Positions 2,111-18,397 of a stretch of 41,415 nt of DNA are shown piece after piece. The stretch lies in IMG/VR virus record IMGVR_UViG_2579778884_000014; one strand, 5' to 3'. The notes beneath the pieces were generated by a model, which was not told the origin of the DNA, made no database searches, and saw only the letters and a program-made list of their open reading frames with translations. The position numbers were made by a program, and so were the translations under genes. This DNA comes from a virus. Lineage: Duplodnaviria; Heunggongvirae; Uroviricota; Caudoviricetes. The number at the start of each line of letters is the position of its first letter. Positions within the stretch are counted from its first letter, which is position 1.

Positions 2111-2818
2111 TTAACACCCTAATGCGAAAAATGAAGCACCGATACCGGGTACGCCTGCTCTGGAAATAAATTTCACCGGGTCCTGGTTATAACCGGCACA
2201 AGCTATATAGCCAACATTTGCACTGCCGGGAGTGTAATCCTGAGTCGCAAATACCCGCAGACATCTGTTCGGAAATGCAATCGGAAAATAGGTTACTGTG
2301 TCCTGAGACGTCAGCGGAACATCAATTGGCCCCCATTGAATAATTAAACCGGATGGCAATTTTTGATATCCAGGAACTGAAGCAGAAAGCATAAAACTAC
2401 CCATATCAGGTATCTGATTCGTCCCTGTCCCCACATTCCTTTTTGCCGCCTCTCCCAAACCAAGGTTTTCGAGAGCCGTTTTCACCGTGCCATCCGATTT
2501 GATATCGCCAAACGGATTCTTGCGGCTCAGGTATTCAACAGCAAACCCCGATCCCAGCAATTCAACAAAACCGGGCAGATCACCATTATCAAGCACATCC
2601 CGTTGCGTTTTGTCACTTACAAACTGGGCCAGAGCTGCAGCAATAAAGCTGGCCTGCCGAATAACCTTATTGACTTGCGCACTGGATGCTTTCCCTGCTG
2701 TAAATCCGGATAAAAGCGCAGGCAACGCTTCCCATTCCTCCTGCGACATAACATTGGCATTTTTACCCGTTGCGAATGCTTTAAAGTCATTTTTTGCCAT
2801 CAGAGTAATACTCCCCAT
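2111..2818 (-). CDS. Tail fibre protein (constant N-terminus fused to invertible C-terminus)
   Basis: 235 aa ORF; the right crossover site (2451..2474) lies in-frame at about residues 115-123, so about 118 N-terminal residues are constant and the C-terminus is swapped by inversion. Confidence 0.75.
2451..2474. repeat. Invertase crossover site, right boundary of invertible segment
   Basis: TCTCCCAAACC-AA-GGTTTTCGAGA, a near-palindrome; inverted copy of the site at 611..634. Confidence 0.7.
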
Positions 2819-3480
2819 GCCCCTACATCAAAACCACTGATGAATTCGTTATCCATATCAAAACCAAAAAATTTTGAACCTTCCGATGGGGTTTCCACCG
2901 AAGGTGTTTCAATGCCACCCGCCCACACCCCGGCGGCTTTTACTGTGAGATATCCCTGTTTAATTGCAGCAATTAACTCACGCGATACATCTGAAATATC
3001 AGTATCAGGAAAGACCCAGACCGATATCGTCATGTCCTGGTTATCGACTATCTGCATTCGCAGCCCGGATCCTGCTGTTGCCGCGTCAAGAATTACCGGA
3101 AGCGAATCATTCCGTCCGTCCCAGTTATTAATCGCAATCTTCGCTTTAAGGATGACACGATAAGTTTCATCGCTGAGGTACATGTATCCGGAATCAGGAT
3201 CGTATGGCCCCTGCCATACACCCTGATCATATCCAAGCCCGTCGGTATCCCAGCTGAAATAGACACCTGAGATAGGCTGGCTGACAACACGGCTACGTCC
3301 GATCCACAATCCAAGAATGTCAAGTTGCACACCAACCGCGGAGTCAATATCAAATGCAGTAATCAACCCTCTGGTGGCCGCCGCAACATCAATAAGCGGC
3401 CGGGTCATCAGATCAACATGCGCAAGAAATTTAGGTTTGGTGGCGTGGTAGTTCGTGATTAGTTCGGTGTATTTGCTCAT
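2800..3480 (-). CDS. Baseplate / tail-fibre-associated protein (DUF2612-like)
   Basis: 226 aa ORF between the baseplate J-like gene and the tail fibre, overlapping both neighbours by a few bases; GxQLDxLG-type motif recalled from DUF2612 tail proteins. Confidence 0.55.
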
Positions 3481-4676
3481 GACTCCACCGTTATAACGAT
3501 ATTTTCCGGGGTACAGGACGCAAATTCGTTGTATCTGATATCAATGTTTGATGACGACAAAGCCCCCGGGGATTTCCCAATCGTCAGTTCCTGAATATCG
3601 TAATAGCGTGCATTCCCGCCACTCACCACGCCAAGATTCGCCGGTGAGTAAATGCGACTTAAAAGGACCGAATCACCAATCATCAGACTATTGATATAGT
3701 CGGAAATAGCCTGCTGGATCTGCTGCCCTATCTGTGAGGTATAACCCGTAAAAACTTTTAATTTAATCCGGGCATAAACAGGCACATCACTGGAACGCGA
3801 GAATTTGATTACATGGGGATTGCCGTATTTATCCGGAACCGTAACGGATGTTGTACCGTGAGTGGCTGTCCCCTGGCCTTTATTTCCTCTGATAGCCTGA
3901 GCAATATCCGTCACATCACCGCCATCCACAATTACAGCAACAGAGTGTGGCGGTAACCCGTTACCGTCCTCTGAACCAGTATCGTTTTCATAGAGTTTGT
4001 GGCGGGTTACACCGGTAACATTAGAAACAGCACCATCCAGTGCTTCAAATGGGGTTATTGATGGCAACGCAACACTTTGCGACTGACGGATACGTAACTC
4101 CGCATCAGTTTCTGCCGGAGTGCCTACAGTAGCTGCAGCAGGATTGGTTACCGAAACCCAGCCACGGGTTGGCGTATTAATTTCAGTGATAGTTCCAGCC
4201 AGCGCCGCCACTGCACCACTGACGGAACATGTTGCGGTCGCCATCACTGTACCATCCACGCCGACCACCACTGAAGCAGGCAAACGCCATATCACATTAT
4301 TACCATCTTTCACGCTGCCATTAATGATGGTTGTTCCGGCAGTTCCTGTAAGAAGCAAATCAACCGTAGAGTTCGTCGCGCCTTTACGTGAAATACCATT
4401 TATTTTCACGTTACTGGTCAGTGCAGCCCCATAGCCGGTTGCCGGTGAAAAACAGTTGTAGACAGTTATCGCAGTATTATTGGCATCATGAATCGCCAGC
4501 GCCATCAGAGCCACCATCTGGCCGTCTTTGCTGTCCGGTTCGAGGTAGGCATCACTGCCATAAATCTGCTGAAAATAGCTAATCAGGGTGCTGAGTATCG
4601 TCTGATAATCAGGCGCACTGATCCCCTCCGCGGTTACCTTTGCAGATAAACCGAGAGAATCAAGGTTCAGAGCCAT
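3477..4676 (-). CDS. Baseplate J-like protein
   Basis: 399 aa ORF at the expected position upstream of the fibre genes in Mu/P2-like baseplate modules; translationally coupled to neighbours. Confidence 0.65.
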   Translation of the reverse strand: MALNLDSLGLSAKVTAEGISAPDYQTILSTLISYFQQIYGSDAYLEPDSKDGQMVALMALAIHDANNTAITVYNCFSPATGYGAALTSNVKINGISRKGATNSTVDLLLTGTAGTTIINGSVKDGNNVIWRLPASVVVGVDGTVMATATCSVSGAVAALAGTITEINTPTRGWVSVTNPAAATVGTPAETDAELRIRQSQSVALPSITPFEALDGAVSNVTGVTRHKLYENDTGSEDGNGLPPHSVAVIVDGGDVTDIAQAIRGNKGQGTATHGTTSVTVPDKYGNPHVIKFSRSSDVPVYARIKLKVFTGYTSQIGQQIQQAISDYINSLMIGDSVLLSRIYSPANLGVVSGGNARYYDIQELTIGKSPGALSSSNIDIRYNEFASCTPENIVITVES

Positions 4677-5029
4677 TACGCCTCCGATGTAACAGTCGTT
4701 ATTCCATAAAGAGTGTCGATTTCAGCGGAAAACATGACACGTCGGGTCGTGGTATCCAGCGTCGTATTGAAAGAGAGGATTGATTTAACGCCCTGCGTTT
4801 CGAGGATGCGCTTACGGATCGCCAGGTTGTAGGTTTCCGGCTTCTGCTTACCGAGTACGGACTGGATCCACGGAGTCCCCTCGGTGGTGTCGAGAAACCA
4901 TTGCCCATACCACAATTCGAATCGCGTTTTTACCGCCTGCGCCACGGCCTCCGGTGAGTTAATCAGCCAGGTGTCATCACCGCTGCCAAAGGTGTAATCG
5001 CCATCGGCGTCTTCACGTCTGTATCGCAT
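4676..5029 (-). CDS. Small baseplate assembly protein (gp25/W-like position)
   Basis: 117 aa ORF between spike and J-like genes with start/stop coupling; call is by synteny only. Confidence 0.45.
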   Translation of the reverse strand: MRYRREDADGDYTFGSGDDTWLINSPEAVAQAVKTRFELWYGQWFLDTTEGTPWIQSVLGKQKPETYNLAIRKRILETQGVKSILSFNTTLDTTTRRVMFSAEIDTLYGITTVTSEA

Positions 5030-5781
5030 CAGTTTACCCCGTCGGTACTGCTTTCACCGCGCTGAACACCACCATGAGTGTGCGTATCATCGATTGGCTT
5101 GCCGTTAGCCTTCACGCCCCCCAAAAACTCAACAGCACCAGTGATTTTTGAAGCCACACCAGAAACCACAGACCCCACCATGCCCCCCATCCAGGTTAAC
5201 AGGCCATGAATGGTTACTTTCTCAGAAAAATCAGCCAGGGGGGCAACCACATCAAGACCACCTGGAGCGACAATTTTAATTTTCCTGGTATCAGGATTAA
5301 GCTCAAAATAGGTGCTGCCGTCATCACTACGCAACTGTGTGGCACTGGTATTAATACCGCTAATCTTCCTTGCCTGCGACTGGGGACCGACAATACAAAA
5401 CGCATCCGATAAATCATGCATTCTGTCATCGACCGACTCCTGTATCCCGCCACTCTGCCACCAGAAATCAATACAACGATCGGCAAAAATCACCAAACAT
5501 TCATCACCGGCTTTAACTGGGAACGTTAGCGTACATCCTCCGCCGCGCGGGAATACCACTGGCACATCCACCAGCAATGGGTAATTTTTGGTAATGCGGT
5601 TGCCGTCATTATCCTTTTCAACCGAACGGATAGCAGGCTGCACAACTGCCGTCACCGCATCAGGATCGAATGACTGAATAATGCCAGGCAAGGCGACACG
5701 GATCTGGTTCTTTGTTGTTTCCCGTTCAGATTTGAATGTTTCGGCAAGGTCGCCGCTGCGGGTCTGGTCAGATACTGCCAT
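5029..5781 (-). CDS. Baseplate central spike (gpV/Mu gp45-like)
   Basis: 250 aa ORF; synteny with the P2 V / Mu gp45 position, glycine-rich C-terminal region. Confidence 0.55.
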   Translation of the reverse strand: MAVSDQTRSGDLAETFKSERETTKNQIRVALPGIIQSFDPDAVTAVVQPAIRSVEKDNDGNRITKNYPLLVDVPVVFPRGGGCTLTFPVKAGDECLVIFADRCIDFWWQSGGIQESVDDRMHDLSDAFCIVGPQSQARKISGINTSATQLRSDDGSTYFELNPDTRKIKIVAPGGLDVVAPLADFSEKVTIHGLLTWMGGMVGSVVSGVASKITGAVEFLGGVKANGKPIDDTHTHGGVQRGESSTDGVN

Positions 5782-5803
5782 TTAGTAGGCTCCAGAAAGC
5801 AAA

Positions 5804-5823
5804 AAACCCGCCGAAGCGGGTTT
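5804..5823 (-). terminator. Intrinsic terminator after the cargo cassette
   Basis: Perfect hairpin AAACCCGC-CGAA-GCGGGTTT; on the minus-strand transcript the stem is followed by UUUUUUGC. Lies between the cargo stop (5841) and the spike gene start (5781). Confidence 0.6.
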
Positions 5824-5840
5824 GATAACGTTAATTTTAT

Positions 5841-6236
5841 TCATGAAACTCTAGCAGACTTTAGCTGTTCCCAGCGCTCAAAATAGAGTTCAGCAGCCTC
5901 GATTGCATCCTGTCCCATCTCTTTCGAAACAGTCACATTCGTCAGATCATAGTCAGCTTCATTTCTAGCATCCCGCCACTGGCGAAGTACGAAAGCTAGG
6001 GATTTCAGTGTATTTGTCGGGTATGGCTCTGATTTGCACTCTGAGGGCGTTGACATATAACCCACAGTATTTTTGTGATGCTCATGGGTAAAATGCGGTA
6101 TGGCAGTAAGTGAGCTAATAGACTCATGTAACATACTGTAATACGCCCTTGAGATAGCGCTTCGAAATCCACTCTCAATATTTTCAGACAGACATAATCG
6201 AGCGGTATCGAGAATCTGATTGCTAGTTACCGACAT
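5841..6236 (-). CDS. Hypothetical protein, cargo gene 2; possible HEPN-like fold
   Basis: 131 aa ORF overlapping the upstream cargo gene by 14 bp; contains ...SRAYYSMLH... (R-x6-H) and a second LRQWRDARNEADYD helix. AT-rich relative to flanking tail genes by eye. Confidence 0.7.
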   Translation of the reverse strand: MSVTSNQILDTARLCLSENIESGFRSAISRAYYSMLHESISSLTAIPHFTHEHHKNTVGYMSTPSECKSEPYPTNTLKSLAFVLRQWRDARNEADYDLTNVTVSKEMGQDAIEAAELYFERWEQLKSARVS

Positions 6237-6996
6237 GGTAGCTCACCCCCGTATGCAACTGACGCGGAGAGGTAAATCTAGCTAACAGGGAACAATCATC
6301 CAGTTTAGATTCAGCGCAGACTCTATCAGCCAAGTCGAAGTTCATTTTGGCAATAGTTTTAGGCTCAAGATTTTTAATATCAACAACATAGCAACCGCTT
6401 CCACTAAGCTGAACGAAACCTGTCGTAGCCTTGTATTCACTTAGCAAGCCCCAGATTATGGATGCTAAGGTCTGGAACTGTTCCTTCGAGCACTGTGTGG
6501 CGCTATAGAAATTATCCATTTCTGCAAGGAGTTCTTCTTTGTGCTTCATAGCATTACTCCTGCCTTCTGATTCAGAAAGAAGCTTAATGTGCTCTTCCAT
6601 ATAAAATTTTAACTGTTCACGCTCGCCGCAACGGTACGCCCAACTGTATGCGTTGTGACTAAAGAGTTTTGTCCGATACTTCTTTGCCAGCGGGACATAG
6701 ACATCCTTGAGTTCATTATAGCTAAATGTATTAATTAAAATGTGATGATAGTGCATTGCCAACGTTACATCGTTTACTTCTAGGCTTATCCTGAGATAAC
6801 GTAACGCGCTTTCAATCTTTCCGGTTATTGCATCCAGATAAGATAGTGCAATGTTGGTAGCAGGCGTTGGAGAGACAGAAAGTTCCTCTCGAATTTTCTT
6901 TTCAGTGAAGGGATCTAAACTTTCCCTATCCAATAGAAGCGCATTGAATTGTTCAATATATTTTTGCGCTTTTTCTAATGGGATGCCTGCCGCCAT
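6223..6996 (-). CDS. Hypothetical protein, cargo gene 1
   Basis: 257 aa ORF with no recognisable virion-protein or enzyme motif; AT-rich by eye; preceded by a promoter-like element and a weak AAGAGA Shine-Dalgarno. Confidence 0.7.
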   Translation of the reverse strand: MAAGIPLEKAQKYIEQFNALLLDRESLDPFTEKKIREELSVSPTPATNIALSYLDAITGKIESALRYLRISLEVNDVTLAMHYHHILINTFSYNELKDVYVPLAKKYRTKLFSHNAYSWAYRCGEREQLKFYMEEHIKLLSESEGRSNAMKHKEELLAEMDNFYSATQCSKEQFQTLASIIWGLLSEYKATTGFVQLSGSGCYVVDIKNLEPKTIAKMNFDLADRVCAESKLDDCSLLARFTSPRQLHTGVSYHVGN

Positions 6997-7025
6997 GGAT
7001 TATTTCTCTTACTAAAGGGATTGTG

Positions 7026-7054
7026 ATTGTGAACTTTGAACAATATCTCGTCAA
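7026..7054 (-). promoter_or_regulatory. Putative sigma70 promoter for the cargo cassette
   Basis: On the minus strand TTGACG - 17 nt - CACAAT about 30 nt upstream of the ATG at 6996, in the 95 bp gap after the 110 aa gene. Imperfect -10; not validated. Confidence 0.3.
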
Positions 7055-7091
7055 CCTTAAAGCGCTCATCTCGGAAGATTGACATCAAACT

Positions 7092-7424
7092 TTAGCGTAA
7101 CGCCTTTTTACACGGGAAAGATCCAATGATTTTCGGCGCGTCCATGCTGTTCTGCAGCAGCTGGACGTTCAGGAAAGCTTTTCCGTTACGTTTCACAAAC
7201 TCAAAGCCGTAATTGTTACCATCACGGGAAGGCATCAGGCCCATGTCCATTTTCATGTTTGAATAGTCACCATCTTTTCCCAGAAATTTTATCTTCTGTG
7301 ATGTGACAGTTTCACCGTTAATAACAGTCATTCCGTCACCGGTCATCGTGTAGTTGCCGCACTGAATTGCAGCCATCGCCGGAGCAGTAACCATCATAAC
7401 TAACGCCAAACATAACCGTTTCAT
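7092..7424 (-). CDS. Small secreted protein of unknown function (signal peptide)
   Basis: 110 aa; N-terminus MKRLCLALVMMVTAPAMAA looks like a Sec signal peptide with an AxA cleavage site; start overlaps the stop of the upstream gene (TAATG). Confidence 0.65.
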   Translation of the reverse strand: MKRLCLALVMMVTAPAMAAIQCGNYTMTGDGMTVINGETVTSQKIKFLGKDGDYSNMKMDMGLMPSRDGNNYGFEFVKRNGKAFLNVQLLQNSMDAPKIIGSFPCKKALR

Positions 7425-8488
7425 TAAAGCCCTCTTTCCCTCGCTGATGAGGAAACAAGATCCGCCGCGCCACGCGCTTCACACATCATATCCATGTACC
7501 ACGCCTGGCCCCTTGTGTCGCCAGTGTACATAATCCCGCGCACAATATAAACGCCATCCGTTGCGATGCTGGCAGGCTGCGATGTGGTGCCGCTGAGCGT
7601 GATATTTCCGTCCGTGTTCTGGTCGGTGATCTGACCACCAGCCATCGCAATATCGTTGTTCGACAACGCGGTACGATAGACGGAAGCCTGATCCAGCTGA
7701 ATGAGCCCGTTAACCCGGATGTTCGGATTAATAAGCGCGCGGACGTTTACGCCGTTACCGATAGTCTGCTGCGGCATTCCAATAAGCCCGGTAGCGCTGT
7801 TGAGCACAATCGCTTCGTGAACATATTCGTTATTCGCCACCATCTGGCGCTGACCGTCCACGAATTGCCATGTTGCGCCACATTGTCCGGCTACGTTATC
7901 CATTAGATGCCGCGTCATGCCAAAGAGTACCCGCCCCCGAGGGAATACAGTAGCAGGCATTTCAGGCGTCAGGCCTTCGGTCGCGCCTTTGGCTTCGAAG
8001 TCTTTCATCAGCGCACGGTTCACATCAGCGACCGTGTAACCGGCAGCCAGCGTCTGTGAGGTTATACTGGTAGCAAAAGCCAGATCAGTATCTGCTGCCT
8101 GAATCAGGACGTAGGTATCAACCGGACTGTCTTTTCCTGTGACCGAGTAGCGAATTTCACCGCTGAAAATCAGTCCGTAGTTGCGGCCATCTCTCTGGCC
8201 CACGTCCGCCGCGTCAACTTCCCGCACGGTCCCTACGTCGCTTGCTGACACCTCCGGCGCGATACCGTCGTAACCGGCAATCAGACGCACTTTCGAAAAC
8301 TCCTGCCCGGTAATTCGGTTCACAGTATCTGCCGAGAGGTTATAAATTTTGATAGTCCCTACCCGGGACGCGCTGCTGATGTTGAACCAGTCGATCGTAA
8401 AGGTGACTTTGAAATCACTTAGCTCAATTCCCTGACCGTTCCCGTCCACAAGCTGCAGCTCGAAATGTCTCATCCAGTTCTGTGACAT
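7424..8488 (-). CDS. Baseplate hub-like tail protein
   Basis: 354 aa ORF downstream of the tape measure block; assignment by synteny with P2 gpD / Mu hub position. Confidence 0.5.
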   Translation of the reverse strand: MSQNWMRHFELQLVDGNGQGIELSDFKVTFTIDWFNISSASRVGTIKIYNLSADTVNRITGQEFSKVRLIAGYDGIAPEVSASDVGTVREVDAADVGQRDGRNYGLIFSGEIRYSVTGKDSPVDTYVLIQAADTDLAFATSITSQTLAAGYTVADVNRALMKDFEAKGATEGLTPEMPATVFPRGRVLFGMTRHLMDNVAGQCGATWQFVDGQRQMVANNEYVHEAIVLNSATGLIGMPQQTIGNGVNVRALINPNIRVNGLIQLDQASVYRTALSNNDIAMAGGQITDQNTDGNITLSGTTSQPASIATDGVYIVRGIMYTGDTRGQAWYMDMMCEARGAADLVSSSARERGL

Positions 8489-8490
8489 GC

Positions 8491-8793
8491 TTACTCCGTT
8501 GATACCAGTAAATGGCTGCGACCGCCCAGGTCAGTTTTTGTGGGGTAATCCTGTGTGTTGTCATCACAGACCACCACCAGCTTAAAACCAAGCCCCATAC
8601 AGGCGTACTGCGCCAGCAGCTCAGCACCAGTGACGAGAGGAATACCGGAGATTACCGGCTCCCCTCTGTCGTTCTGCAGGTCCATAATCCAGTACAGATC
8701 GCGCCATATGATGCTAATCCGCCAGGTGACACCACCCAGGACGATGCTGAACTGCTGGTTGTCCGCTGTCAGCGGAATTTCCTGAATTGTCAT
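8491..8793 (-). CDS. Tail protein of unknown role
   Basis: 100 aa ORF tightly packed within the tail operon. Confidence 0.45.
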   Translation of the reverse strand: MTIQEIPLTADNQQFSIVLGGVTWRISIIWRDLYWIMDLQNDRGEPVISGIPLVTGAELLAQYACMGLGFKLVVVCDDNTQDYPTKTDLGGRSHLLVSTE

Positions 8794-9380
8794 TAGCCGC
8801 CCCCCAGTAATGACGCCACGTTACCCGTGATGCTTTTCAGCAGTGAAGTATCTGGAGGCTTTGTGGTTTTGTTGCCGCTGTTCTGTACCGCCGACGTGCT
8901 GGCCCCTTCCTTCATGTTGGTTTTATCCGCGACGGTAATCTGCTGTGTCCGGGAGATAATGACCTCCCTCAGGGTGAGGACAGCGGACAGGACGTTTTCG
9001 GTTGTCTTGTCCGTCGTCACTTCCAGCGCCCGGATCAACATGTTGCTGTACAGCCGTTTACCGGTTACCACATCGAAGGGGATACGGCTTTCCTGCAGAC
9101 CCAGTAGCTCCTGATACGTCTGCTGAGGACTCAGGCCGAGCAGGCTGGTAGCCGTCAGGTTACTGGCAAAATCCAGCAATGCGCCGCCACCGGCGAAACC
9201 AACCTCCATCACCACTTCTGACGGTTTTTTATAGGCATGATCAGCGACAGCGGCCCCGACCTCTACCGGATGCTCTGTTATTTCAAGCATATCTGTATGC
9301 TTCTCTGAAATAACAACACTGGGAACAATCATTCCTATTTTTCTGCTCTGCTGATGAAAAAGTGTAGAGAGAATATCCAC
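8793..9380 (-). CDS. Tail protein of unknown role
   Basis: 195 aa ORF immediately downstream of the tape measure gene with a 1 nt start/stop overlap. Confidence 0.45.
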   Translation of the reverse strand: MDILSTLFHQQSRKIGMIVPSVVISEKHTDMLEITEHPVEVGAAVADHAYKKPSEVVMEVGFAGGGALLDFASNLTATSLLGLSPQQTYQELLGLQESRIPFDVVTGKRLYSNMLIRALEVTTDKTTENVLSAVLTLREVIISRTQQITVADKTNMKEGASTSAVQNSGNKTTKPPDTSLLKSITGNVASLLGGG

Positions 9381-11365
9381 TAACCCACCCTCACCTGATT
9401 ACTTCGCATGACCTGAGCATTTGCAGACTGTTGCCGACGTGCAACCTCATTACCGACAGCGTGCGGATCTCCGCCACCGTAAATGTGGTAGGTATTTTGC
9501 TGGTTAACCTCTGTCACTTTGCCACTAATTCCCGCCACGGCAGCCTTATTAATCAGCTCTCGAGAATAGATATTTCTTCCATTCTCATGCTGGATAATGC
9601 TGCTCATCAATGCTGACATGGTTTGCGGATCACTCATATTCAGGGCAGCCCGGGGATCCACTCCCAGTCGTTGCGATACAGCCCTGATATACGCTGTTGT
9701 GTTGTTATTATCAGACGCAGGTGCCCAGGTAGAGATAATTTTCTCCACACTGTTTATTCCCCGTCCGGCGTACAGCATTAACTGACGAGCAAGAGCCCGT
9801 AATCCATCAAAGGCAGTTTCAAATCTGGCAAATCGCCCGCCCGGGCGTTCAAGAGAAGCCCCTGCCTGACCAGCAAAATTAAGGTTTCCCGGATTGTTAT
9901 TCCGTTCTCCTCGTTTCGTAGCCTGTGCATATTGTTCCGGCTCAGCACCTGGAATATCTGACTGAATATTTGCGCCTTTTACGGTATGAGGATTACGACC
10001 AAAATCGGTATCAATGCCAAGCCAGCGCAATGAATCTCCAATATTTTGTTTCGTGTAATCCCAGGATGACTTCGCACTGGCACCAATATTTTCGCGATCA
10101 GAGTACAAATACGCAGCATAAGCCATCCAGCCTTTTAACCACGGCGGGACCGGCAAACCTGATATTTTCCCGAAAGCCCCCAGAACCCTGGATACCCAGA
10201 CACCCGCGATGAATGTACCAAGGATTTCCAGTGCATTTTGCCAGCCGCCAACACCATCTTTTAGTTCCAGAAGGTGATCACGAAGCCAGGTGATCGCATC
10301 CTTCGCTTTATCTATTGCCGGTTGCCATTTTTCCCAGTCGATAAGACTGTTACCGCCTTCTTTCCATGTTTTGTAGTCTTCCCACAAGAGACCGAGAGCC
10401 ACGATCAGACCGGTAATCAGCCCTATAGGTGACATCCAGAAAGTAGAGTTAAGTATCCGCATGGCGACAACCAGACCGCCGATAACCTCTATCAGGGTTT
10501 TCGTTTCGGCATCCAGTTTCCCCCACCACTCGATGATATCTCCGACACCATCGACTATCCGAAATGCTACCCGCCCGACTATCTCACCCAGCCAGAGGAT
10601 CCCCTTTATGACCTTTGTGATGGTGACTTCAATTTTGGGAAAATTTTCAATTATCTTTTTGCGCAGGTTATCAATCTGCCCCGCCAGTCCGTCCGCAAGA
10701 TTCGATCCGATTTTGTCCCGCGCCATCCTGGCCATTTCACCGAGCGATTTCAGCGAGGTCATAAACCGGTTTGACGATAAGGCAGCCTGATCGGCATTAA
10801 ATCCGATCGCTTTCACCATTTCTGAATACTGAGCGCTGAACTGCCCCACTCCGCGACGCATAGCCATCAGGGTATTTTCGTCAATGCCCAGCATCTGCGC
10901 ATACTGGTTAGCCCGGTAATACGGCATGCTGCTGAGTTTCTGTCCAACGCCCGTAAAGATAGCAGCCATGTCACGCATGTTACCGCTGGCATCACGGGTC
11001 TGTACGCCCAGGCGATTCAGAAAGCCTTCTGCTCCGGGATTGTTACGAATAAACCGGGAGAGGCTTTCCAGAGAAGATCGCGCAGCGTCCACACTGCCGC
11101 CAACCTGCGAAACCGCATAGCCAATAGACTGAATTCCCTGGACCGTCGCGCCGGTGCGCTGTGACGCCCAGTAAAGATTATCCAGGCCGGAGGCGATCTT
11201 AGCCGTGAAGGCCACCACGGACAGCGCAGCCCCTTCAACAGCCAGCCCCATTTTGATGACATTTGCAGTTGTACCGGCGAGGACAGAACCGAACTTTTTC
11301 GCTCCTGCATCATCCACACTGAAGCCAAGCGAGACGAGGAAATCTTTAATAGTTTCAGCGTTCAT
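9380..11365 (-). CDS. Tail tape measure protein
   Basis: Largest gene of the tail module, alanine/glycine-rich with helical and hydrophobic segments. Track start at 11386 is a TTG; the ATG at 11365 has a strong GGAGAGAGG Shine-Dalgarno. Confidence 0.8.
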   Translation of the reverse strand: MNAETIKDFLVSLGFSVDDAGAKKFGSVLAGTTANVIKMGLAVEGAALSVVAFTAKIASGLDNLYWASQRTGATVQGIQSIGYAVSQVGGSVDAARSSLESLSRFIRNNPGAEGFLNRLGVQTRDASGNMRDMAAIFTGVGQKLSSMPYYRANQYAQMLGIDENTLMAMRRGVGQFSAQYSEMVKAIGFNADQAALSSNRFMTSLKSLGEMARMARDKIGSNLADGLAGQIDNLRKKIIENFPKIEVTITKVIKGILWLGEIVGRVAFRIVDGVGDIIEWWGKLDAETKTLIEVIGGLVVAMRILNSTFWMSPIGLITGLIVALGLLWEDYKTWKEGGNSLIDWEKWQPAIDKAKDAITWLRDHLLELKDGVGGWQNALEILGTFIAGVWVSRVLGAFGKISGLPVPPWLKGWMAYAAYLYSDRENIGASAKSSWDYTKQNIGDSLRWLGIDTDFGRNPHTVKGANIQSDIPGAEPEQYAQATKRGERNNNPGNLNFAGQAGASLERPGGRFARFETAFDGLRALARQLMLYAGRGINSVEKIISTWAPASDNNNTTAYIRAVSQRLGVDPRAALNMSDPQTMSALMSSIIQHENGRNIYSRELINKAAVAGISGKVTEVNQQNTYHIYGGGDPHAVGNEVARRQQSANAQVMRSNQVRVG

Positions 11366-11995
11366 TATCCTCTCTCCATTTCTCAATGCGTCGCTGGTTA
11401 TCCGCTTTTACCGCCAGATGGTCATTCAAGAGAGCAATGTCATACAAATCGACAGAGCCATCTTTAAGTGCTGTATAAGGAATTAACCCGGCGTCAACCG
11501 GATTGAGAAGGTAGGACAGCCCGTCCGGCAGGCTGTTAAACGTCAGCCCTGTTGCAGGCTCTGCGTCGTGCTGGTAAGGGGTGTAGGCAAAAAATTTCCC
11601 AGCGAATCGGCGACCACCCGCGCCACCAGCTGCAGCATGACCAGCAAGTCAATATCATCAAACATCAGTTCGCCCTGGGTAAATACCGGCACCCATCCGT
11701 CCATATGACGCCGCGATACCACCGCAAGACAGGGATGAATAATCGCATCGGTGTCATCTTCGGTCAGGGAAGACAGTTCCTCAGCGATACGCGGGAGCAT
11801 GGTTTCAAACACCGGTTTTAACTGTTCGAATTTCACGGTGTCGATTTTGCCGTCAGCAGGCAAACGGGAGCGAATACTCCCGAAATCTGACATCATTCCT
11901 GCCAACACCGGCAGAAGTTTGCGGGTCACTTTCAGTTGGTCAAAAACGCTGAGTTTTGCCACGCGATATTTCACGCCTTTAATTTCGAATTCCAT
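11355..11995 (-). CDS. Tail assembly chaperone, predicted -1 frameshift fusion product (GT-like)
   Basis: Slippery heptamer T_TTT_TTG (plus coordinates 11588..11594) about 15 codons before the chaperone stop; the -1 frame is open from there to a TGA at 11355..11357, just inside the tape measure start. Confidence 0.5.
11543..11995 (-). CDS. Tail assembly chaperone (G-like, unshifted product)
   Basis: 150 aa ORF between the tail tube and tape measure genes, the conserved chaperone position. Confidence 0.65.
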   Translation of the reverse strand: MEFEIKGVKYRVAKLSVFDQLKVTRKLLPVLAGMMSDFGSIRSRLPADGKIDTVKFEQLKPVFETMLPRIAEELSSLTEDDTDAIIHPCLAVVSRRHMDGWVPVFTQGELMFDDIDLLVMLQLVARVVADSLGNFLPTPLTSTTQSLQQG

Positions 11996-11998
11996 GCA

Positions 11999-12439
11999 TT
12001 AAAACTCCCCGAGAACCTGGTCAATCTTGCCGCAGTCAAACACCCACGGCATCGTATTACCGGTTTTAGCGTTGGCGTTATCCGGTTGTTTCTGGAACGC
12101 AACACTGCGTGCCGTGATGATGTCGCCGCTGACCTTGTTGCGGATCACGATAACGTTATTCCCCCATGTGGCAGAAGACTGGCTCTGTGCGTTATACGCC
12201 AGCGACAATTTTTTATTTGTCGGTGATGTCTTCAGAAGGTTAACGGTAATCGTCCCGCTTTTATCTGCATGGAGACTGTGCATCACTTCGCCATCAGCAC
12301 CGATGGTCATGGTGTTTTTAGGACCACCCATCGCAACCACAATCCCCTCTTCAGAACTTGCCGAACCGTACCCGAGGTCAATCGAACCGGTCGGCCCGGT
12401 CAGCGTCGCAGTGACATCCATAAAAGAATAGGTAGACAT
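11999..12439 (-). CDS. Tail tube protein
   Basis: 146 aa ORF directly downstream of the sheath gene; size and position typical of contractile-tail tube proteins. Confidence 0.65.
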   Translation of the reverse strand: MSTYSFMDVTATLTGPTGSIDLGYGSASSEEGIVVAMGGPKNTMTIGADGEVMHSLHADKSGTITVNLLKTSPTNKKLSLAYNAQSQSSATWGNNVIVIRNKVSGDIITARSVAFQKQPDNANAKTGNTMPWVFDCGKIDQVLGEF

Positions 12440-12449
12440 TCACTTCCCC

Positions 12450-13595
12450 TTAGCGAACAACGTTAATCTGTACGTCAGCGTAATGAACCGCGCCTGCAAG
12501 TTTTATTGCAGCCTGAATCACCGGAGCCTTACGGGCTTCACGTTCTGATTGTGCCTGTTCATCCAGCGGCTGGGCGTATACGTAATAACCTTTGGGCAGT
12601 GTGTCACCTGATGACAACTGACCAAGGTCGCCCCCGTTCCATACGCCCGGAGCAATCAGTCCATTCTGAACGGCCTGATCCAGTGATTTTTCAACATTTG
12701 ATAACAGTCGGGTAATACCGGCTTCAGTCTGGGGAACTTTCGTGGTACTGGAATAAAGCAGGTTATAGAGGTTGGTCTGCACATAATTCTGTAACCAGTC
12801 CAGGCCGTGGCGTTCATCAAAGAAATCGCCGTTAGCCATCACTCCCTGCTGGAGGATAGCTGTATCATTCTGGTAGTACACGAACACATTGCAGTTTTTT
12901 GCATCAAGTGCCGATGCCTGGCTGACTGTCAGTGTTTCATACCCGACACCCGGCTCCTGCTTAAACTTGAGCGTAATCGCGGTATTACTGCCATTGAAAT
13001 TAACCGTGAATGCCCGGCCAAATGCAGATAACGCAGCGTATTTATTACCCGATGAATACTGAATAAAACTGCGTGAATATCCGGCGGTTTTCAGTTTTGA
13101 TGCCAAATCATCGCTGGATGCAGTCTGCAGGCATTTCTCATCGCTTGTCGTAATCGCCAGAATACGGCTTACAGAAGAGGATTCGATCGCCGCAGCCACT
13201 TTCAGCCAGTCTGCATCCGGAATATCTTCATCGCCTGCAATCCCCAGCCCATACCATGAAGTATAATCGAGCATGGCATTCACAGCCTGCTCCAGCGTCT
13301 CAGGCGTGGCCTGTTCGCTGTCTCCCTTCGTTTTCACCCAACGACCAACAAAAACCTCCTGAGGTTTCGGTGATTGTGAGAAAAACACCTGCGCAGCTTT
13401 ATATTCTGGTGATTCCACGCCAAAATCTTTTCCAATATCTTCCGCGGCAGAATAACGACGAATGCGCTCACTTACCGGAATGATTGTGGACGGGCCGAGA
13501 ATGAGTAATGCACCAAAATTTCGCCCTGATGCTGCACGCGGCGACATGATCACATCAACATTAACAACGTTTGATACAGGCAAGCCCTGTGCCAT
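12450..13595 (-). CDS. Tail sheath protein
   Basis: 381 aa ORF preceding the tube gene; size and position typical of sheath proteins. Confidence 0.7.
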
Positions 13596-13598
13596 AGC

Positions 13599-14165
13599 TT
13601 AATCTCCGAAAAAGATGACTGGTGCTTCCACCAGCGATTTAATACCGTACTCGCGCACAACCTTCCGGCGCAGACGCACCGTCATATCGTAGCGGCGGAC
13701 CCATTGCTGATTAATAAGTTCAGGGAAGGGAGTCAGACCTGTGTAATCGCCAAGAGACAGCCCCAGCGCATTCAGTGCTGCGTTGTTCTGCGGTACAGAT
13801 ATACCGTCACGAAACCGGGACGCATACACCATCCCCGCCGGACCATAAAACGAAGCCATACACTCAATCGTTTCATGCCGCCAGAGCTGAGAGCCATCAT
13901 CGGTCTGTCTGGTGAATGCCGGACTGTCATCACCTGACCATCCGATAACCCCAAACGCACACCAGTTCGTTTCAGCCGGTAGCAGTGGCGGTTGCTCTTT
14001 CTGCCAGCGCGGACGAACCATCCCGGCAGACAGACCGGAAACGTTACGCATCCACTGGCTTAACAGCCTGTCGAGCGCTTCGTCATAATCCGGATCGCCA
14101 CTGGTTGGTATTAACCATCCGCGCTCTGTACTGGTGTTATTGCTCAACCGGAGTTCCCCCATCAA
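13599..14165 (-). CDS. Neck / tail completion protein
   Basis: 188 aa ORF between head and sheath genes; by synteny only. Confidence 0.45.
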   Translation of the reverse strand: MMGELRLSNNTSTERGWLIPTSGDPDYDEALDRLLSQWMRNVSGLSAGMVRPRWQKEQPPLLPAETNWCAFGVIGWSGDDSPAFTRQTDDGSQLWRHETIECMASFYGPAGMVYASRFRDGISVPQNNAALNALGLSLGDYTGLTPFPELINQQWVRRYDMTVRLRRKVVREYGIKSLVEAPVIFFGD

Positions 14166-14526
14166 ACGGCATCAACTCACAATGCGCCTGAACGAATCCG
14201 GCCCCATAAGCTGTATACGGGTCGACGAAGGTCACACGATAATCACGGCCCTGATACGTCACGATATCGGCATCACGGCCAGTCTGTCCCTGCGTCAGTC
14301 GCTCAGTCGTCACGATCAGAATTGCACCGCTGATTACCTGCCCGGCCTGCATACGGCGGTTTTCCAGAGAGCGATCAACAGTTACGACTCCGGCAAACTG
14401 CTTTTTAACTTCACTGTCGCTGCCGATCCCGTCCTCATCCACCGTTTGCTCTCGGCGTGTTACCCACAAATTGAAGTCGCAAAAATCGGGGTCAAAAAGC
14501 ACATCTGTTACATCAAGAGTCGGCAT
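14137..14526 (-). CDS. Head-tail joining protein
   Basis: 129 aa ORF overlapping neighbours in the head-to-tail junction region. Confidence 0.45.
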   Translation of the reverse strand: MPTLDVTDVLFDPDFCDFNLWVTRREQTVDEDGIGSDSEVKKQFAGVVTVDRSLENRRMQAGQVISGAILIVTTERLTQGQTGRDADIVTYQGRDYRVTFVDPYTAYGAGFVQAHCELMPFDGGTPVEQ

Positions 14527-15067
14527 CTTTATCCCTCACAACATGGGTAATCGCTCTGCGATATTGCCCGGTGTCAATTAATGGTTTCGCCAGATCGGTT
14601 CCCGGAGATTCGCCAGCAGCACGCCGGGCAAGTTCCAGTGTTGCCCCCTTGCGCCCCCGACGAGCCCGGGCTTCAACAGTACTGTCAGCAAGCGGCGTAA
14701 AGCCGGTAATGGTCATGTAACGCCTGACGCCATTAACGGCCAGCGTTCCGGCACGGTTGAGTGCACTTTCTGCTCCCGCAGCATTACCATCAAGTGCAGC
14801 CTGCGCCGCGGTTTTAAGCTGCGGCACCGTCTGCTCTTCTGCCGATTTAACGCCGGGGACCAGGTGAGGTCGTGGCGGGATGTTCTGCTCTGGTGAGCCG
14901 TATTCGTTGAGGTAACCGATGCCCGCATTACCAAACGGAACATCATCCCGCTCGCTGTCTTCCGAAGGGATGCCGACCAGCACATCTTTTTTGGTTAACG
15001 ACCTGAGCGCATCCAGAATGGCCTTAGCGTTATCCACCCTCGTTGTTACACCGCTTTTGAAACTCAT
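14513..15067 (-). CDS. Head-tail joining / head completion protein
   Basis: 184 aa ORF in the connector region. Confidence 0.45.
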
Positions 15068-15471
15068 AGCTGGCGACCACCTGCACCGAACATCATGATC
15101 AACTGATAAAATTCAGCGCCATATCGGGTGTTATTCCAGAAACCTGCATCAGGATTCAGCGTCGCGCTGGTGTCATAACTGACGCTTACCTTATCCACGG
15201 ACTTTGAGGACTGAACACCATTGGTTGAACCGCCCGGACCACCAGCCAGCATCGCCCTGCTGTCTGCCGCCCAGAGCGTCATGTAGTGCGCAACGAACAA
15301 CCCGGCAAAGTACGGAAACAACTTTTTGCCGGTGACGTTTTCGCTCAGTAGTTCATCTGCCAGATTCAGACGAAACTGGATTTGCGCTTCGGGATATTTG
15401 GCAGGGTCAGCAAACTGCGGGAAGTCGCGGCGAAAATCACTTACCGCTGGCAGACTTTGATTCTTTGGCAT
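15064..15471 (-). CDS. Head-tail connector protein
   Basis: 135 aa ORF with 4 nt overlap to the downstream gene. Confidence 0.45.
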
Positions 15472-15658
15472 TTTTTACCTCGTTACGCGCGTCTGTGGCT
15501 TTGCCAACGGATACTTCCGCGTGCGCACGAGTGAACCAGTGCGTGGCAACGTCTTCCTCCACAGCATGACGGCCTTTAACAAACTCGCGCCGTGAACCGT
15601 CGGGAAGCGTGAGCACAAACGGGGTATGTACGTGTATTACTGCATTATTTTTTGCCAT
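15437..15658 (-). CDS. Hypothetical small head-region protein
   Basis: 73 aa ORF with AAGGATGA Shine-Dalgarno, directly after the post-capsid hairpin. Confidence 0.4.
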
Positions 15659-15699
15659 CGGGTCATCCTTAATGGCCCCGCCAGGGGGCCATGTGGCTG

Positions 15700-16641
15700 T
15701 TAAATGCCATCAACGTACGAAATGGTTTCTTTGTACACTGGCTCAACCGCACCCAGCTTGCCGTAGTAAGTGACGATCTGATACAGACCGCGATACTGCA
15801 CCGGCACGCTCTGAAGCGGAACCAGCGGGTAGCGGACGTATTTTTTATCGTTGGTGTACGCAACCATGCGATCCTTTTTCCCCACACCACGGCCTTTCAG
15901 CCATTTAACCGCGCGGATATTCAGCGGAACACCGTTCTGGTGATAGCTGATGGTGTTGGTCCGAAGGTACGTCAACAGGGACTGGTTACCCGCAGATGAA
16001 ACGATGATGCTGGACAACAGAGCAAACTGCTCAGGCGGGATCAGCAAATCACGCGGAACCACAGAGTAACCGGAAGCGGCCCACGCATCAGACAGCACCT
16101 GGTTAATGCTTGCGCGGATTTCGTCCGGTGTTGAGGTTGCCCACGTTTTGGCAGAGTTGTTGACAGGCACGCCGTCCAGGGTAACAAGGCCTTTCAGGTT
16201 TAATGCGGAATCGCCAACATATACCTGTTCATCGTTATCCATCTGCCATTTCAGTTGCATACCGTCATACTTCTGCGTATCAATCGGGCGGCCGACCTGC
16301 TGAGCAGCCTGCAATTCTATGATCGTCCAGCCAAGTTCCATCCCCCACAGGTTCAGCGGGTTACCGGATTTGCCGATATCCACGTTCACGCCAGCAATAG
16401 CGGTTGAGTCTTTGCCTACCCAGTTTTTGCCATTCGGATTTGCACCAGTACCCGCAGCGGCGAAGCTGGTATTCGTCCAGCTGGAAATGTCATCTGCGAT
16501 AGAGACATCTTCACGCAACTGAATATCGCGGGTCCAGGTGTACCCCACCAGCGGCAGGTTCAGCGTCTGGTCGAGTCGCTCCAGCTCCCCGATGAGAAAG
16601 GCACCAGAGCTGTCAACGGTTGCCTGATCAAAAGTAATCAT
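15700..16641 (-). CDS. Major capsid protein
   Basis: 313 aa ORF following scaffold and decoration-like genes and followed by a strong stem-loop. Confidence 0.6.
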   Translation of the reverse strand: MITFDQATVDSSGAFLIGELERLDQTLNLPLVGYTWTRDIQLREDVSIADDISSWTNTSFAAAGTGANPNGKNWVGKDSTAIAGVNVDIGKSGNPLNLWGMELGWTIIELQAAQQVGRPIDTQKYDGMQLKWQMDNDEQVYVGDSALNLKGLVTLDGVPVNNSAKTWATSTPDEIRASINQVLSDAWAASGYSVVPRDLLIPPEQFALLSSIIVSSAGNQSLLTYLRTNTISYHQNGVPLNIRAVKWLKGRGVGKKDRMVAYTNDKKYVRYPLVPLQSVPVQYRGLYQIVTYYGKLGAVEPVYKETISYVDGI

Positions 16642-16652
16642 TCGTCTGTTCC

Positions 16653-17159
16653 TTAAATTTTCCAGGAAATTTCTGCATTGCCGTCAGCATCACCGGCACC
16701 TGTGAATTCAGCGTTGGTCAGCACCACATTTTTGCCACTGACTGACGTGGACATGAATCCACCCAGCGGCACTTTGATGGATTCATCAGTGGAGACGACA
16801 ACGTATACCGGGTCGCCTTTTTTGATGGTGCTGGCATCAAAATCAGAACCGAGATTAACGGTCACGTAGCCACGCTTCATGGCGTCGCCCGGGAAGTTCT
16901 TGCCACTCCCCACCTGGCGAACCATGTCCGGCTGCGAAGTGGTCGGATAAGGGCGCACGTAGATCCCCTTCACCTTGTCTGCGGTATCACCATCTGCCAG
17001 CGGCACGAAAAAACCGTCATCATCGTATTTACCAGCCAGCCCATAGGCAGCGAAGGCGTTATCGGATTTAAGGACCACCGGTTCGACGGTTAAGTCCTGC
17101 GGGCGAGAGACAGCCCCGGCAATGCCAACAGGCATCCGGTACAGAAATACATTATTCAT
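16653..17159 (-). CDS. Head structural / decoration-like protein
   Basis: 168 aa ORF between the scaffold-like and capsid genes. Confidence 0.45.
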   Translation of the reverse strand: MNNVFLYRMPVGIAGAVSRPQDLTVEPVVLKSDNAFAAYGLAGKYDDDGFFVPLADGDTADKVKGIYVRPYPTTSQPDMVRQVGSGKNFPGDAMKRGYVTVNLGSDFDASTIKKGDPVYVVVSTDESIKVPLGGFMSTSVSGKNVVLTNAEFTGAGDADGNAEISWKI

Positions 17160-17162
17160 TTT

Positions 17163-18383
17163 TTACCCTTTACGGTTTGCCCAGAATTCAGCGTTTTGTT
17201 TGTTCAGGGAAGCGATACTGGTCATGCCCATGTTTAGGCGCTGTGCATCGCCGGTGGTGGCGCGGGTGTTTCGCCCTTTGGCAATCTCAGACACGGCATT
17301 AAACGCCATGTCGACCGATTGTTTCGGCAATTTGCGGATATCCGCATCACCGACGATCTGGCGAACCAGCGTTTTATCTGCGGAAGCCAGAACCTCGCGT
17401 TTGAACTCGGTCGGTTTCATCTTACGGCTCAGATCGATACCCGGAACGATAACTTCGGCACGCCAGGCTGAGTCACCAGTAATCGTGGTTTCCTCTTCAT
17501 CGTCCTCGCCGTCACCGGTCGGATTATCGTCAGGCTTATTATCGTTATCGCCCGTGGCATTTCCTTCCAGCTTAGCCAGCAGGGCTTTCAGTAATGTTTT
17601 GAGGTCATCATCACTGTCGCCGGTTGGACCTCCCCCCATCTCTGGTGCTTTGTCCGGTAGTGGTTGCTGCGGGGACAGGTTGATGTTGAGATTAACGCCC
17701 TGCGGCAAATCCCCCTCATCTCCTGTAACCGATGCGGGAGCCGACTCCACCAGTTCGTTCATGGTGTCGGCATCTCCTGTCTTGATGGCTGCACGCATGC
17801 GGTTCCACCAGTTTTTCTTTTGATTTGCCATTGTGTCTCTGTCTCCAATTGCACAACGATTTCCGGCTCTGCCTTTGGGGACAAGAGCCACATGGTTTCC
17901 GGTAATATCGACCTGCTCGGCTTTACCTGGCTCGGTCTGCTCGTACTCCGCGTCATAGCCGCACGACACTTCACGCAGGCCATCTTCGATAAGCTGAATG
18001 GCGCTTTCGTCTTTGACGATAAGGTCAGCCAGCATCAAATCAGACTGCTCACCCGTCCCGCGCCGGACATTCTGGAGGTGCCCGACAGCAAGCTCTTTCC
18101 AGTTCTCGGGATTTACCAGCCGCACATCCCCGTTTTCATCCTCGGGATGCAACACCGTGATACTCATTCCTTCGAATGAGGCAAGCGTGGCGGGATGGAA
18201 TACCTGCTCAGGAGATCGCGTGACGACTATTTCACCGAACTTATCGGGTTTCAGTTTTGGCAGGTCATCAGCACCATAGAGCTGCTTACCTGTTCGTCCT
18301 ATCGGCACGTCTTTGCACAGCAACGAGCCGTCAGCCAGCTGATAGCGGGTTTCCCCCAGCCGGGTATTGAAAAAATATTTCAT
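17163..18383 (-). CDS. Head scaffolding / prohead protease-like protein
   Basis: 406 aa ORF with a long acidic low-complexity linker (…TGDSDDDL…GDGEDDEEE…) typical of scaffold proteins. Confidence 0.5.
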   Translation of the reverse strand: MKYFFNTRLGETRYQLADGSLLCKDVPIGRTGKQLYGADDLPKLKPDKFGEIVVTRSPEQVFHPATLASFEGMSITVLHPEDENGDVRLVNPENWKELAVGHLQNVRRGTGEQSDLMLADLIVKDESAIQLIEDGLREVSCGYDAEYEQTEPGKAEQVDITGNHVALVPKGRAGNRCAIGDRDTMANQKKNWWNRMRAAIKTGDADTMNELVESAPASVTGDEGDLPQGVNLNINLSPQQPLPDKAPEMGGGPTGDSDDDLKTLLKALLAKLEGNATGDNDNKPDDNPTGDGEDDEEETTITGDSAWRAEVIVPGIDLSRKMKPTEFKREVLASADKTLVRQIVGDADIRKLPKQSVDMAFNAVSEIAKGRNTRATTGDAQRLNMGMTSIASLNKQNAEFWANRKG

Positions 18384-18397
18384 GTGTTACCTGCGAT

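Follow-up and report, generated by a model that had tools for sequence, protein, structure and literature searches.

The locus raises the question of whether the tail assembly chaperone gene of an Escherichia coli prophage, placed just ahead of the tape measure gene, is read into one protein or into two. The window (the whole stretch of DNA that was analysed, 41,415 nucleotides) carries the genes concerned in the order sheath, tube, chaperone, extension and tape measure, all on the minus strand:

12450..13595, minus strand: tail sheath gene (Pfam DUF3383, E = 2e-100; PHROG 205 'tail sheath', E = 3e-135)
11999..12439, minus strand: tail tube gene, directly upstream of the chaperone gene (Pfam KPP10_Orf10/DUF3277, E = 9e-61)
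11543..11995, minus strand: tail assembly chaperone gene, 0-frame product of 150 aa ('G-like' short form; Pfam Phage_TAC_15)
11543..11587, minus strand: dual-coding overlap zone, with the 0-frame tail PTPLTSTTQSLQQG plus stop and the -1 linker AYTPYQHDAEPATG
11355..11588, minus strand: -1 extension, 77 codons plus the TGA stop (11357..11355), the 'T-like' part of a predicted 213-aa fusion (translation; PHROG 4364, E = 1.4e-22)
11364..11480, minus strand: DUF6889 domain, small and helical, fusion residues 173-211 (Pfam PF21829, E = 8.9e-20)
9380..11365, minus strand: tape measure protein gene (PHROG 2276 'tail length tape measure protein', E = 1e-265; RefSeq CDS of the same span)

The sheath gene identifies a contractile-tail phage, and two overlapping open reading frames lie between the tube and tape measure genes, the position expected of a G/GT-type chaperone. 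We consider it very likely, judging from the sequences, that the chaperone gene of this SEN34-like temperate contractile-tail E. coli prophage uses a programmed -1 ribosomal frameshift of the lambda G/GT type. Directly visible in the sequence are the slip site, the open frame, the identities of the domains, conservation at nucleotide and frame level and the natural fusions in relatives; that the ribosome itself shifts is our inference.

The earlier note on this DNA had placed a T_TTT_TTG heptamer at 11594..11588, about 15 codons before the stop of a 150-aa chaperone, followed by a -1 frame free of stops until a TGA inside the tape measure start. The minus-strand frame 11995..11543 does encode 150 aa, and the heptamer is found there in X_XXY_YYZ phase (third base of Asn134, then Phe135 and Leu136), with 14 sense codons and then the stop behind it. 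From 11648 onward no stop interrupts the -1 frame until the TGA at 11357..11355, 8 nt into the tape measure gene; the ATG of that gene (11365..11363) overlaps the end of the extension (AATGAACGCTGA), and this overlap motif is also kept in relatives. The predicted fusion of about 214 aa thus has its frame, but its length is 213 aa, for an expected mass of roughly 23.5 kDa. The choice of a single heptamer as the slip site also needs amendment: T_TTT_TTG is present, but it is really the third of three heptamers in one 13-nt run:

11588..11600, minus strand: compound slippery run G_GGA_AAT_TTT_TTG, 13 nt, three overlapping in-phase heptamers (from sequence and phase)
11600..11594, minus strand: heptamer G_GGA_AAT, in phase
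11597..11591, minus strand: heptamer A_AAT_TTT, in phase
11594..11588, minus strand: heptamer T_TTT_TTG, the last of the three

Within the stretch where both frames are open (11648..11546), the three at 11600..11588 are the sole in-phase heptamers. There are 23 other in-phase heptamers in genes between 3477 and 24077 of the window, counted with the gene coordinates of the same prophage in E. coli BH100N (>99.8% identical, though with the tail-fibre segment inverted and 48 bp of length difference near 24.1 kb), which apply to 2451..24124 only. More than 21 open -1 codons follow just one of these 23, and there the -1 frame is the frame of the next gene.

Conservation was analyzed across 80 loci from different species with 44-86% protein identity; the pattern scan for relatives was based on a 7-sequence alignment, a 19-sequence alignment being too divergent. 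The in-phase T6 run and the AAT codon are present in all 80 loci and GGA in 78, and the run sits in X_XXY_YYZ phase in every one of them. Its last base is G in 71 loci, T in 7, A in 1 and C in 1. The conserved residues flanking the slip site are encoded by 2 to 6 different synonymous codons each, and synonymous sites are frozen at the slip site alone. The two loci lacking A_AAT_TTT have GGT AAT, which puts TAA in the -1 frame, and both carry seven Ts, that is, T_TTT_TTT. The complete 13-nt run is identical in phages with just 66-85% DNA identity to the region.

The -1 frame is under constraint as well. Mean pairwise identity in the overlap zone is 0.57 in the -1 frame vs 0.35 in the 0 frame, and the constraint begins at the first codon after the slip site. 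The earlier note had named stops in this frame in close relatives, along with a missing fusion product, as the finding that would speak against a shift; the objection from stops fails because the frame runs open to the tape measure start, with a homologue of the extension in the -1 frame, in 79 of the 80 diverse loci, and is open in all ten phage and E. coli relatives examined. Slip site and -1 frame are therefore kept together despite sequence divergence, as in G/GT-type genes. The conserved G/GT arrangement that had been proposed holds up, its position, in-phase frozen slip site, startless -1 frame corresponding to DUF6889, constraint and natural fusions all being in agreement.

The same fusion, with the junction LGNFF-AYT, would also arise by transcriptional slippage, in which RNA polymerase adds one U on the T6 run and the ribosome does not shift. 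The full invariance of the homopolymer, which is T7 in seven loci, suits this reading, and a read-archive assembly contig (P0001/L011) with seven Ts instead of six encodes a 213-aa in-frame fusion, so that a one-base insertion yields the right product; since either a genuine mutation or a sequencing error in the homopolymer could explain the contig, we did not count it as evidence. Runs of U7 and A7 are avoided in genes, partly owing to slippage (Sharma et al., 2014; PMC4066793). However, conservation extends beyond the T run, as far upstream as the GGA codon, which matters for a ribosomal shift on A_AAT_TTT and not for the polymerase, and the precise phase of the run in every locus likewise argues against slippage. 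A run of six is, as a matter of general knowledge, far under the length that E. coli RNA polymerase needs, efficient slippage requiring runs of 8-9 or more. Polymerase slippage is very unlikely to be the source of the fusion.

For the ribosomal shift, the three heptamers predict different junctions. The junction LGNFF-AYT of the earlier note fits a slip on A_AAT_TTT or G_GGA_AAT, but not the tandem slip on T_TTT_TTG with which it had been paired, which would give LGNFL-AYT. At the protein level, ...SLGNFFAYTPYQ would point to A_AAU_UUU, G_GGA_AAU or polymerase slippage, and ...SLGNFLAYTPYQ to a tandem slip on U_UUU_UUG. The H_HH.U_UU.Y motifs, A_AAU_UUU included, are among the efficient motifs in E. 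coli, and U_UUU_UUG and G_GGA_AAU stand outside that group (Sharma et al., 2014; PMC4066793). In enterobacteria most of the shifting probably takes place on A_AAU_UUU, with tRNA-Asn in the P site and tRNA-Phe in the A site and the junction ...LGNFF-AYTPYQ, and U_UUU_UUG would serve as a secondary site with the junction ...LGNFL-AYT. The efficiency of the shift is probably a few percent. That U_UUU_UUG, the heptamer first singled out in this gene, is not of the efficient E. coli class counts against the frameshift reading.

Upstream of the run there is one candidate for a stimulatory element:

11612..11620, minus strand: Shine-Dalgarno-like element CGGGTGGTC, about 15 nt upstream of A_AAT_TTT, candidate frameshift stimulator (anti-SD complementarity)

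Across the 80 loci this is the strongest anti-SD complementarity between -120 and +60 (mean -6.8 kcal/mol; 82% of loci at or below -5), and at the element 49 of 68 Arg residues are encoded by CGG and 73 of 80 Val residues by GTG. The upstream SD-like CGGGUGGUC may act as a stimulator of the shift. A spacing of about 15 nt is at or beyond what works in dnaX. The element overlaps conserved Arg-Val-Val codons, which counts against a stimulator role.

A search for a downstream stimulatory RNA structure had been proposed as a check, and no conserved structure emerged from it. The single-sequence fold of 131 nt was no better than shuffles (z = -0.85), and RNAalifold on 21 diverse relatives gave zero pairs. 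A conserved downstream stimulatory structure was rejected on these two results, which concern folds other than pseudoknots. With no downstream structure, efficiency would therefore rest on the heptamers and perhaps on the upstream element.

Profile searches of the conceptual fusion against Pfam identified Phage_TAC_15 (PF21822) at residues 6-136 (107 bits vs a gathering cutoff of 22) and, in the -1 frame, DUF6889 (PF21829; 70.6 bits vs a cutoff of 23.9); PHROG 1688 and PHROG 4364 also match. At E <= 0.1 these two are the only Pfam domains found in the fusion, with no match to the families of lambda gpG/gpT or P2 gpE/E', and a sequence search against PDB chains gave no match at E <= 1. In the AlphaFold model of the fusion, residues 142-150 form a low-confidence linker, and helices are predicted at 160-168, 174-179 and 184-211 (pLDDT 87-92).

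The DUF6889 domain might alternatively be an independent small gene with its own internal start, at a CTG at 11519 or elsewhere, in which case the slippery run would be incidental. RefSeq indeed has a 54-aa 'DUF6889 family protein' at 11519..11355, and several phage records show a frame of 50-58 aa, often named 'NTP pyrophosphohydrolase'. However, the extension frame of the window has no initiation signal of its own, since neither ATG nor GTG occurs in it and RefSeq has to start at CTG; the 80-locus comparison shows no conserved Met column ahead of the domain; and gene callers disagree on the length of the frame (43-78 aa). The -1 constraint begins before any start that has been proposed, the synonymous positions of the slip site are frozen, and the domain is covalently fused to the chaperone domain in distant relatives. 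The independent-gene reading was rejected, with hardly any probability left to it, on the lack of ATG, GTG or a conserved Met, the natural fusions and the early -1 constraint.

These natural fusions were identified in 7 distant representatives, which share 28-33% identity with the fusion in the alignment and in which chaperone and DUF6889 lie in one open reading frame. The extension aligns with their C-terminal halves across the junction (AYTP vs SYTP, AYEP and TYAP). A separate short TAC_15 gene precedes the fusion gene in all three loci checked (L012, L013 and L016), and no slippery sequence was detected in the four junctions examined. The metagenomic two-gene pairs (L012, L013/L014 and L016) are similar to the present locus in that a short TAC_15 and a long TAC_15-DUF6889 stand side by side in the tail module, but they are diverged paralogous genes without a frameshift, with non-slippery junction codons (e.g. 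TTC TTC, TTC CTG) in DNA of 60-67% GC.

Chance alone, that is, a T-rich Asn-Phe-Leu motif before an accidentally open frame with no second product, could draw on the frequency of in-phase heptamers (about 1 per 300 codons in the window) and on a 77-codon open frame being expected a few percent of the time, but is effectively refuted by the invariance of the slip-site nucleotides in all 80 loci, the synonymous freezing, the conserved -1 frame with its Pfam domain and the natural fusions.

The proposed ribosomal frameshift agrees in several respects with known systems. Like lambda gpG/gpGT, the locus has two overlapping frames flanked by the major tail gene and the tape measure gene, with an in-phase heptamer near the end of the first and a second frame at -1 without its own start, and an abundant short and a rare long chaperone would be the expected outcome. 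The lambda frameshift is not known to need a downstream RNA structure, and none was detected here. The lambda slip site is G_GGA_AAG, whereas the present run is G_GGA_AAT_TTT_TTG; the contractile tail, the possible upstream SD-like element and the lack of detectable similarity to gpG/gpT are further differences. The lambda gpG/gpGT programmed -1 frameshift was reportedly described by Levin, Hendrix and Casjens in 1993 and by Xu, Hendrix and Duda in 2004, 2013 and 2014, the 2004 study being said to have dealt with the G/GT-type tail assembly chaperone frameshift as a class.

Phage P2 (gpE/gpE+E'), likewise temperate, contractile-tailed and enterobacterial, shifts by -1 at the T-rich heptamer TTTTTTG directly ahead of its tape measure gene; this shift was reportedly described by Christie et al. 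in 2002. The protein families are unlike, with no Pfam P2 GpE match at E <= 0.1, and the sheath/tube module here is of the DUF3383/DUF3277 (E217/KPP10/Pam3-like) type. The resemblance to lambda gpG/gpT and P2 gpE/E' is one of arrangement and inferred role, without detectable sequence homology. E. coli dnaX also combines an upstream anti-SD-complementary element with a slippery heptamer, but its spacing is 10 nt compared with about 15 nt here, it has a downstream hairpin that is lacking here, and its shift truncates the product instead of lengthening it.

A true homologue is present in Klebsiella phage Mulock (CPT_Mulock_014/015, GenBank MN098327), with the chaperone 60% and the extension 64% identical, the 13-nt run GGGAAATTTTTTG identical and the same overlap with the tape measure start. 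Its GenBank record annotates the homologous frameshift, as annotation only, as a joined CDS ('tape measure chaperone', 'frameshift product'). Neither the chaperone nor a frameshift is mentioned in the Mulock genome announcement or the SEN34 paper, the recoding review (PMC5009743) does not report this fusion, and literature searches on DUF6889, PF21822 and Phage_TAC_15 gave no papers.

Under the proposed frameshift, most ribosomes would stay in the 0 frame and make the 150-aa chaperone, and a minority would move back by one base on G_GGA_AAU_UUU_UUG, where the last helix of the chaperone domain ends, read 77 more codons and stop just inside the tape measure gene. The long product would consist of the chaperone domain, a flexible linker and the small helical DUF6889 domain. 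For lambda, the mechanism, a 30:1 product ratio and wide conservation have been reviewed (Atkins et al., 2016; PMC5009743). If the lambda model applies here, the tape measure protein would be coated by the chaperone domains of the short and the long product alike, the additional domain of the rare long form would bring in the tube subunit to start tail polymerisation, and neither product would be retained in the virion. The tube protein is assigned as the partner by analogy only, because the extension has no detectable similarity to lambda gpT or P2 E'.

A more detailed version of the frameshift is tentative, and we think it rather less probable than not. The signal would be a compound one, made of three phased heptamers and an upstream SD-like element conserved at the codon level, with no downstream structure; lineages retaining GGA would shift on A_AAU_UUU and those without it on U_UUU_UUU. 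In contractile-tail phages DUF6889 would correspond to the lambda T domain, and the high-GC two-gene relatives a natural experiment on a hard-wired product ratio. If so, these relatives with two paralogous genes would probe why recoding usually hard-wires the two-product ratio.

The feature is ordinary and well known for long-tailed phages, of low novelty, and was missed by genome annotation here; it leaves current understanding unchanged. The rule that long-tailed phages produce two chaperones, one short and one long, gains a further case from a contractile-tail lineage (SEN34/Mulock/E217-type tail module), and the two-gene relatives offer a comparison for the frameshift strategy. DUF6889 acquires a context once it is seen as the C-terminal domain that the frameshift adds to Phage_TAC_15 chaperones. 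In the records examined, the frameshift product is split into a chaperone and an orphan 'DUF6889' or 'NTP pyrophosphohydrolase' frame with an implausible start. A close relative of the region is present in about 370 complete E. coli genomes, and relatives also occur in many Salmonella, Klebsiella, Enterobacter and Pantoea prophages.

The genes around the predicted frameshift site all lie on the minus strand and form part of a phage tail module of the contractile type. The 150-aa protein encoded there scores 107 bits against Pfam Phage_TAC_15 (cutoff 22) and also matches PHROG 1688, 'tail assembly chaperone'. Upstream of it are the tail tube (KPP10_Orf10/DUF3277) and sheath (DUF3383) genes, and downstream the tape measure protein gene (PHROG 2276, E 1e-265), followed by genes for Dit-like, Pam3 gp18-like plug and E217 gp41-like hub baseplate proteins. 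The window itself is a prophage of roughly 41 kb that shares >99.8% identity with one carried by E. coli BH100N; pinE marks one boundary and an integrase adjoining yfhL the other. Its tail module has relatives in Salmonella phage SEN34, which electron microscopy shows to be a myovirus (PMC5261728), and in Yersinia phage YP3 and Klebsiella phage Mulock. The elements of the site are:

11995..11543, minus strand, tail assembly chaperone ORF (150 aa)
11600..11588, minus strand, 13-nt slippery run G_GGA_AAT_TTT_TTG, three overlapping in-phase heptamers
11365..11363, minus strand, ATG start of the next gene (tape measure), preceded by a GGAGAGAGG ribosome-binding site

In the chaperone frame, Gly133-Asn134-Phe135-Leu136 are encoded by GGA AAT TTT TTG, so that T_TTT_TTG (11594..11588) stands exactly where the earlier note had placed a -1 frameshift, in the X_XXY_YYZ phase needed for such a slip; it is not alone, however, being the last of the three heptamers. 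The -1 frame is open as claimed there: starting at 11648 it passes the slip site and meets its first stop at a TGA (11357..11355) 8 nt inside the next gene. The predicted slip product has 213 aa. The junction proposed for it, LGNFF-AYT, fits a slip on either upstream heptamer, whereas tandem slippage on T_TTT_TTG would give LGNFL-AYT. Within the conceptual fusion of chaperone and extension, the part in the -1 frame scores 70.6 bits against Pfam DUF6889 (cutoff 23.9) and also matches PHROG 4364.

The 13-nt run is identical in 10/10 phage and E. coli relatives (66-100% DNA identity to the region), and in all ten the -1 frame runs on without a stop until it meets the tape measure start in the same AATGAACGCTGA-type overlap. 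Among 80 loci from different bacterial species (chaperones 44-86% identical to that of the window), the in-phase T6 run and the Asn codon AAT are invariant (80/80 each), the Gly codon is GGA in 78, and the codon after TTT is TTG in 71, TTT in 7, TTA in 1 and TTC in 1. Conserved residues only a few codons upstream are each encoded by 2 to 6 synonymous codons, so selection precisely at the slip site acts on nucleotides as well as on amino acids. In the two loci with GGT in place of GGA, A_AAT_TTT is lost and a TAA arises in the -1 frame; both carry seven Ts (T_TTT_TTT), which looks like compensation between alternative heptamers. Slippage of transcription on the T run would yield the same protein as ribosomal slippage, but six Ts are a short run, and both the strict phase and the conservation of GGA favour the ribosome. 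In one relative (L011 1898-1910, a read-archive contig) seven Ts instead of six place chaperone and extension in one 213-aa ORF, whose product (P0001) is 98% identical to the conceptual fusion; either it is a natural mutant making the long form alone, or the assembly has a homopolymer error.

In records of relatives the extension widely appears as a separate ORF of 43-78 aa, under the name 'NTP pyrophosphohydrolase' in GenBank or as 'DUF6889 family protein' (e.g. 2015-2167 in loci L005 and L006; GenBank/RefSeq proteins P0271-P0295), and RefSeq treats it as an independent gene with a CTG start. Against this, the ORF is without a start codon, no conserved methionine precedes the DUF6889 domain in the 80 loci, the called lengths are inconsistent, and the -1 frame is constrained already upstream of every proposed start. 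In the dual-read zone (11-16 codons), mean pairwise identity is 0.57 in the -1 frame vs 0.35 in the 0 frame. None of the family searches supported the name 'NTP pyrophosphohydrolase'. In 79/80 loci the -1 ORF reaches the tape measure start without a stop and shows homology to the window's extension; in the exception (L046, about 1926-2113) the extension is broken and homology resumes in another frame, likely the result of misassembly or of an indel in a prophage that is decaying.

Natural fusions with the chaperone also argue against an independent gene. Among 1.8 billion representative proteins searched, seven distant relatives of 191-210 aa aligned with the conceptual fusion on both sides of the junction (28-33% identical to the fusion when aligned with it), and just past the junction AYTP of the window is matched by SYTP, AYEP or TYAP. 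The chaperone and DUF6889 parts thus appear to belong to one polypeptide. Contigs were fetched for four of the seven single-ORF relatives, and slippery junction codons were found in 0/4 (e.g. TTC TTC; DNA 60-67% GC). In L012 (108-1238), L013 (1989-3130) and L016 (231-1285), a short Phage_TAC_15 gene is followed by a long TAC_15-DUF6889 gene; the same adjacent paralogues are also listed for L014. These two-gene phages would make short and long chaperones from separate genes, frameshift-free, and the enterobacterial phages could obtain the same pair through frameshift only. Chance coincidence of heptamer and open frame is excluded by the comparative data.

The earlier note had suggested a search for a downstream stimulatory RNA structure; no conserved one was found after the slip site, and therefore the slip must rest mainly on the heptamers, as in lambda. 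In systematic E. coli measurements, H_HH.U_UU.Y motifs, including A_AAU_UUU, are among the efficient ones, and U_UUU_UUG and G_GGA_AAU fall outside that group (PMC4066793). Given this motif class and the conserved GGA codon, A_AAU_UUU would be the likeliest main slip site, with U_UUU_UUG secondary. Within the 120 nt upstream, anti-Shine-Dalgarno complementarity is strongest at a conserved CGGGTGGTC, which lies about 15 nt ahead of A_AAU_UUU and whose Arg codon is CGG, a rare codon in E. coli, in 49/68 loci. This Shine-Dalgarno-like element may stimulate the shift; given the long spacing and its overlap with conserved Arg-Val-Val codons, that is no more than a hint. By analogy, the short and long chaperones would share the roles of lambda gpG and gpGT, which are needed at about 30:1 and are both absent from the virion; gpG, and gpGT through its G part, bind the tape measure protein, and the major tail protein is the partner of the T domain (PMC5009743). 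The likeness to lambda is in arrangement only, and no sequence similarity of the extension to lambda gpT or P2 E' was detectable.

The comparisons thus point to a predicted chaperone frameshift, well supported and of the ordinary textbook kind. In the GenBank entry for Klebsiella phage Mulock, a joined CDS is already annotated at the homologous site; the frameshift is absent from the text of that phage's genome announcement, and no publication was found on frameshifting in this phage group or on its link to DUF6889. The practical value is annotation, and the triple heptamer, possible upstream stimulator and two-gene relatives are modestly interesting details.

Elsewhere in the tail module, an in-phase G_GGG_GGC (about 8799-8805, minus strand) lies four codons before the stop of the Dit-like baseplate gene (8793..9380). 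Its -1 frame is that of the plug gene (8491..8793, ATGA overlap), so a slip would join the two baseplate proteins; the heptamer is probably a coincidence. Residues about 414-656 of the tape measure protein (9380-11365) have PHROG matches labelled endolysin and tail injection transglycosylase, and annotations of its relatives name a lytic transglycosylase domain, so the C-terminal third of the protein probably holds a cell-wall-degrading domain. An invertible tail-fibre segment lies within 1-2468, where 18-nt inverted repeats (617-634 and 2451-2468; AAACGTTGGTTTGGGAGA / TCTCCCAAACCAAGGTTT) enclose alternative tail-fibre and fibre-assembly genes beside the Pin-type recombinase gene pinE (1-555). 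This 1.85-kb segment has the opposite orientation in the BH100N prophage, which is otherwise >99.8% identical to the window; inversion aside, the sole indel between the two prophages is a 48-bp length difference at about 24114-24124, downstream of the holin gene.
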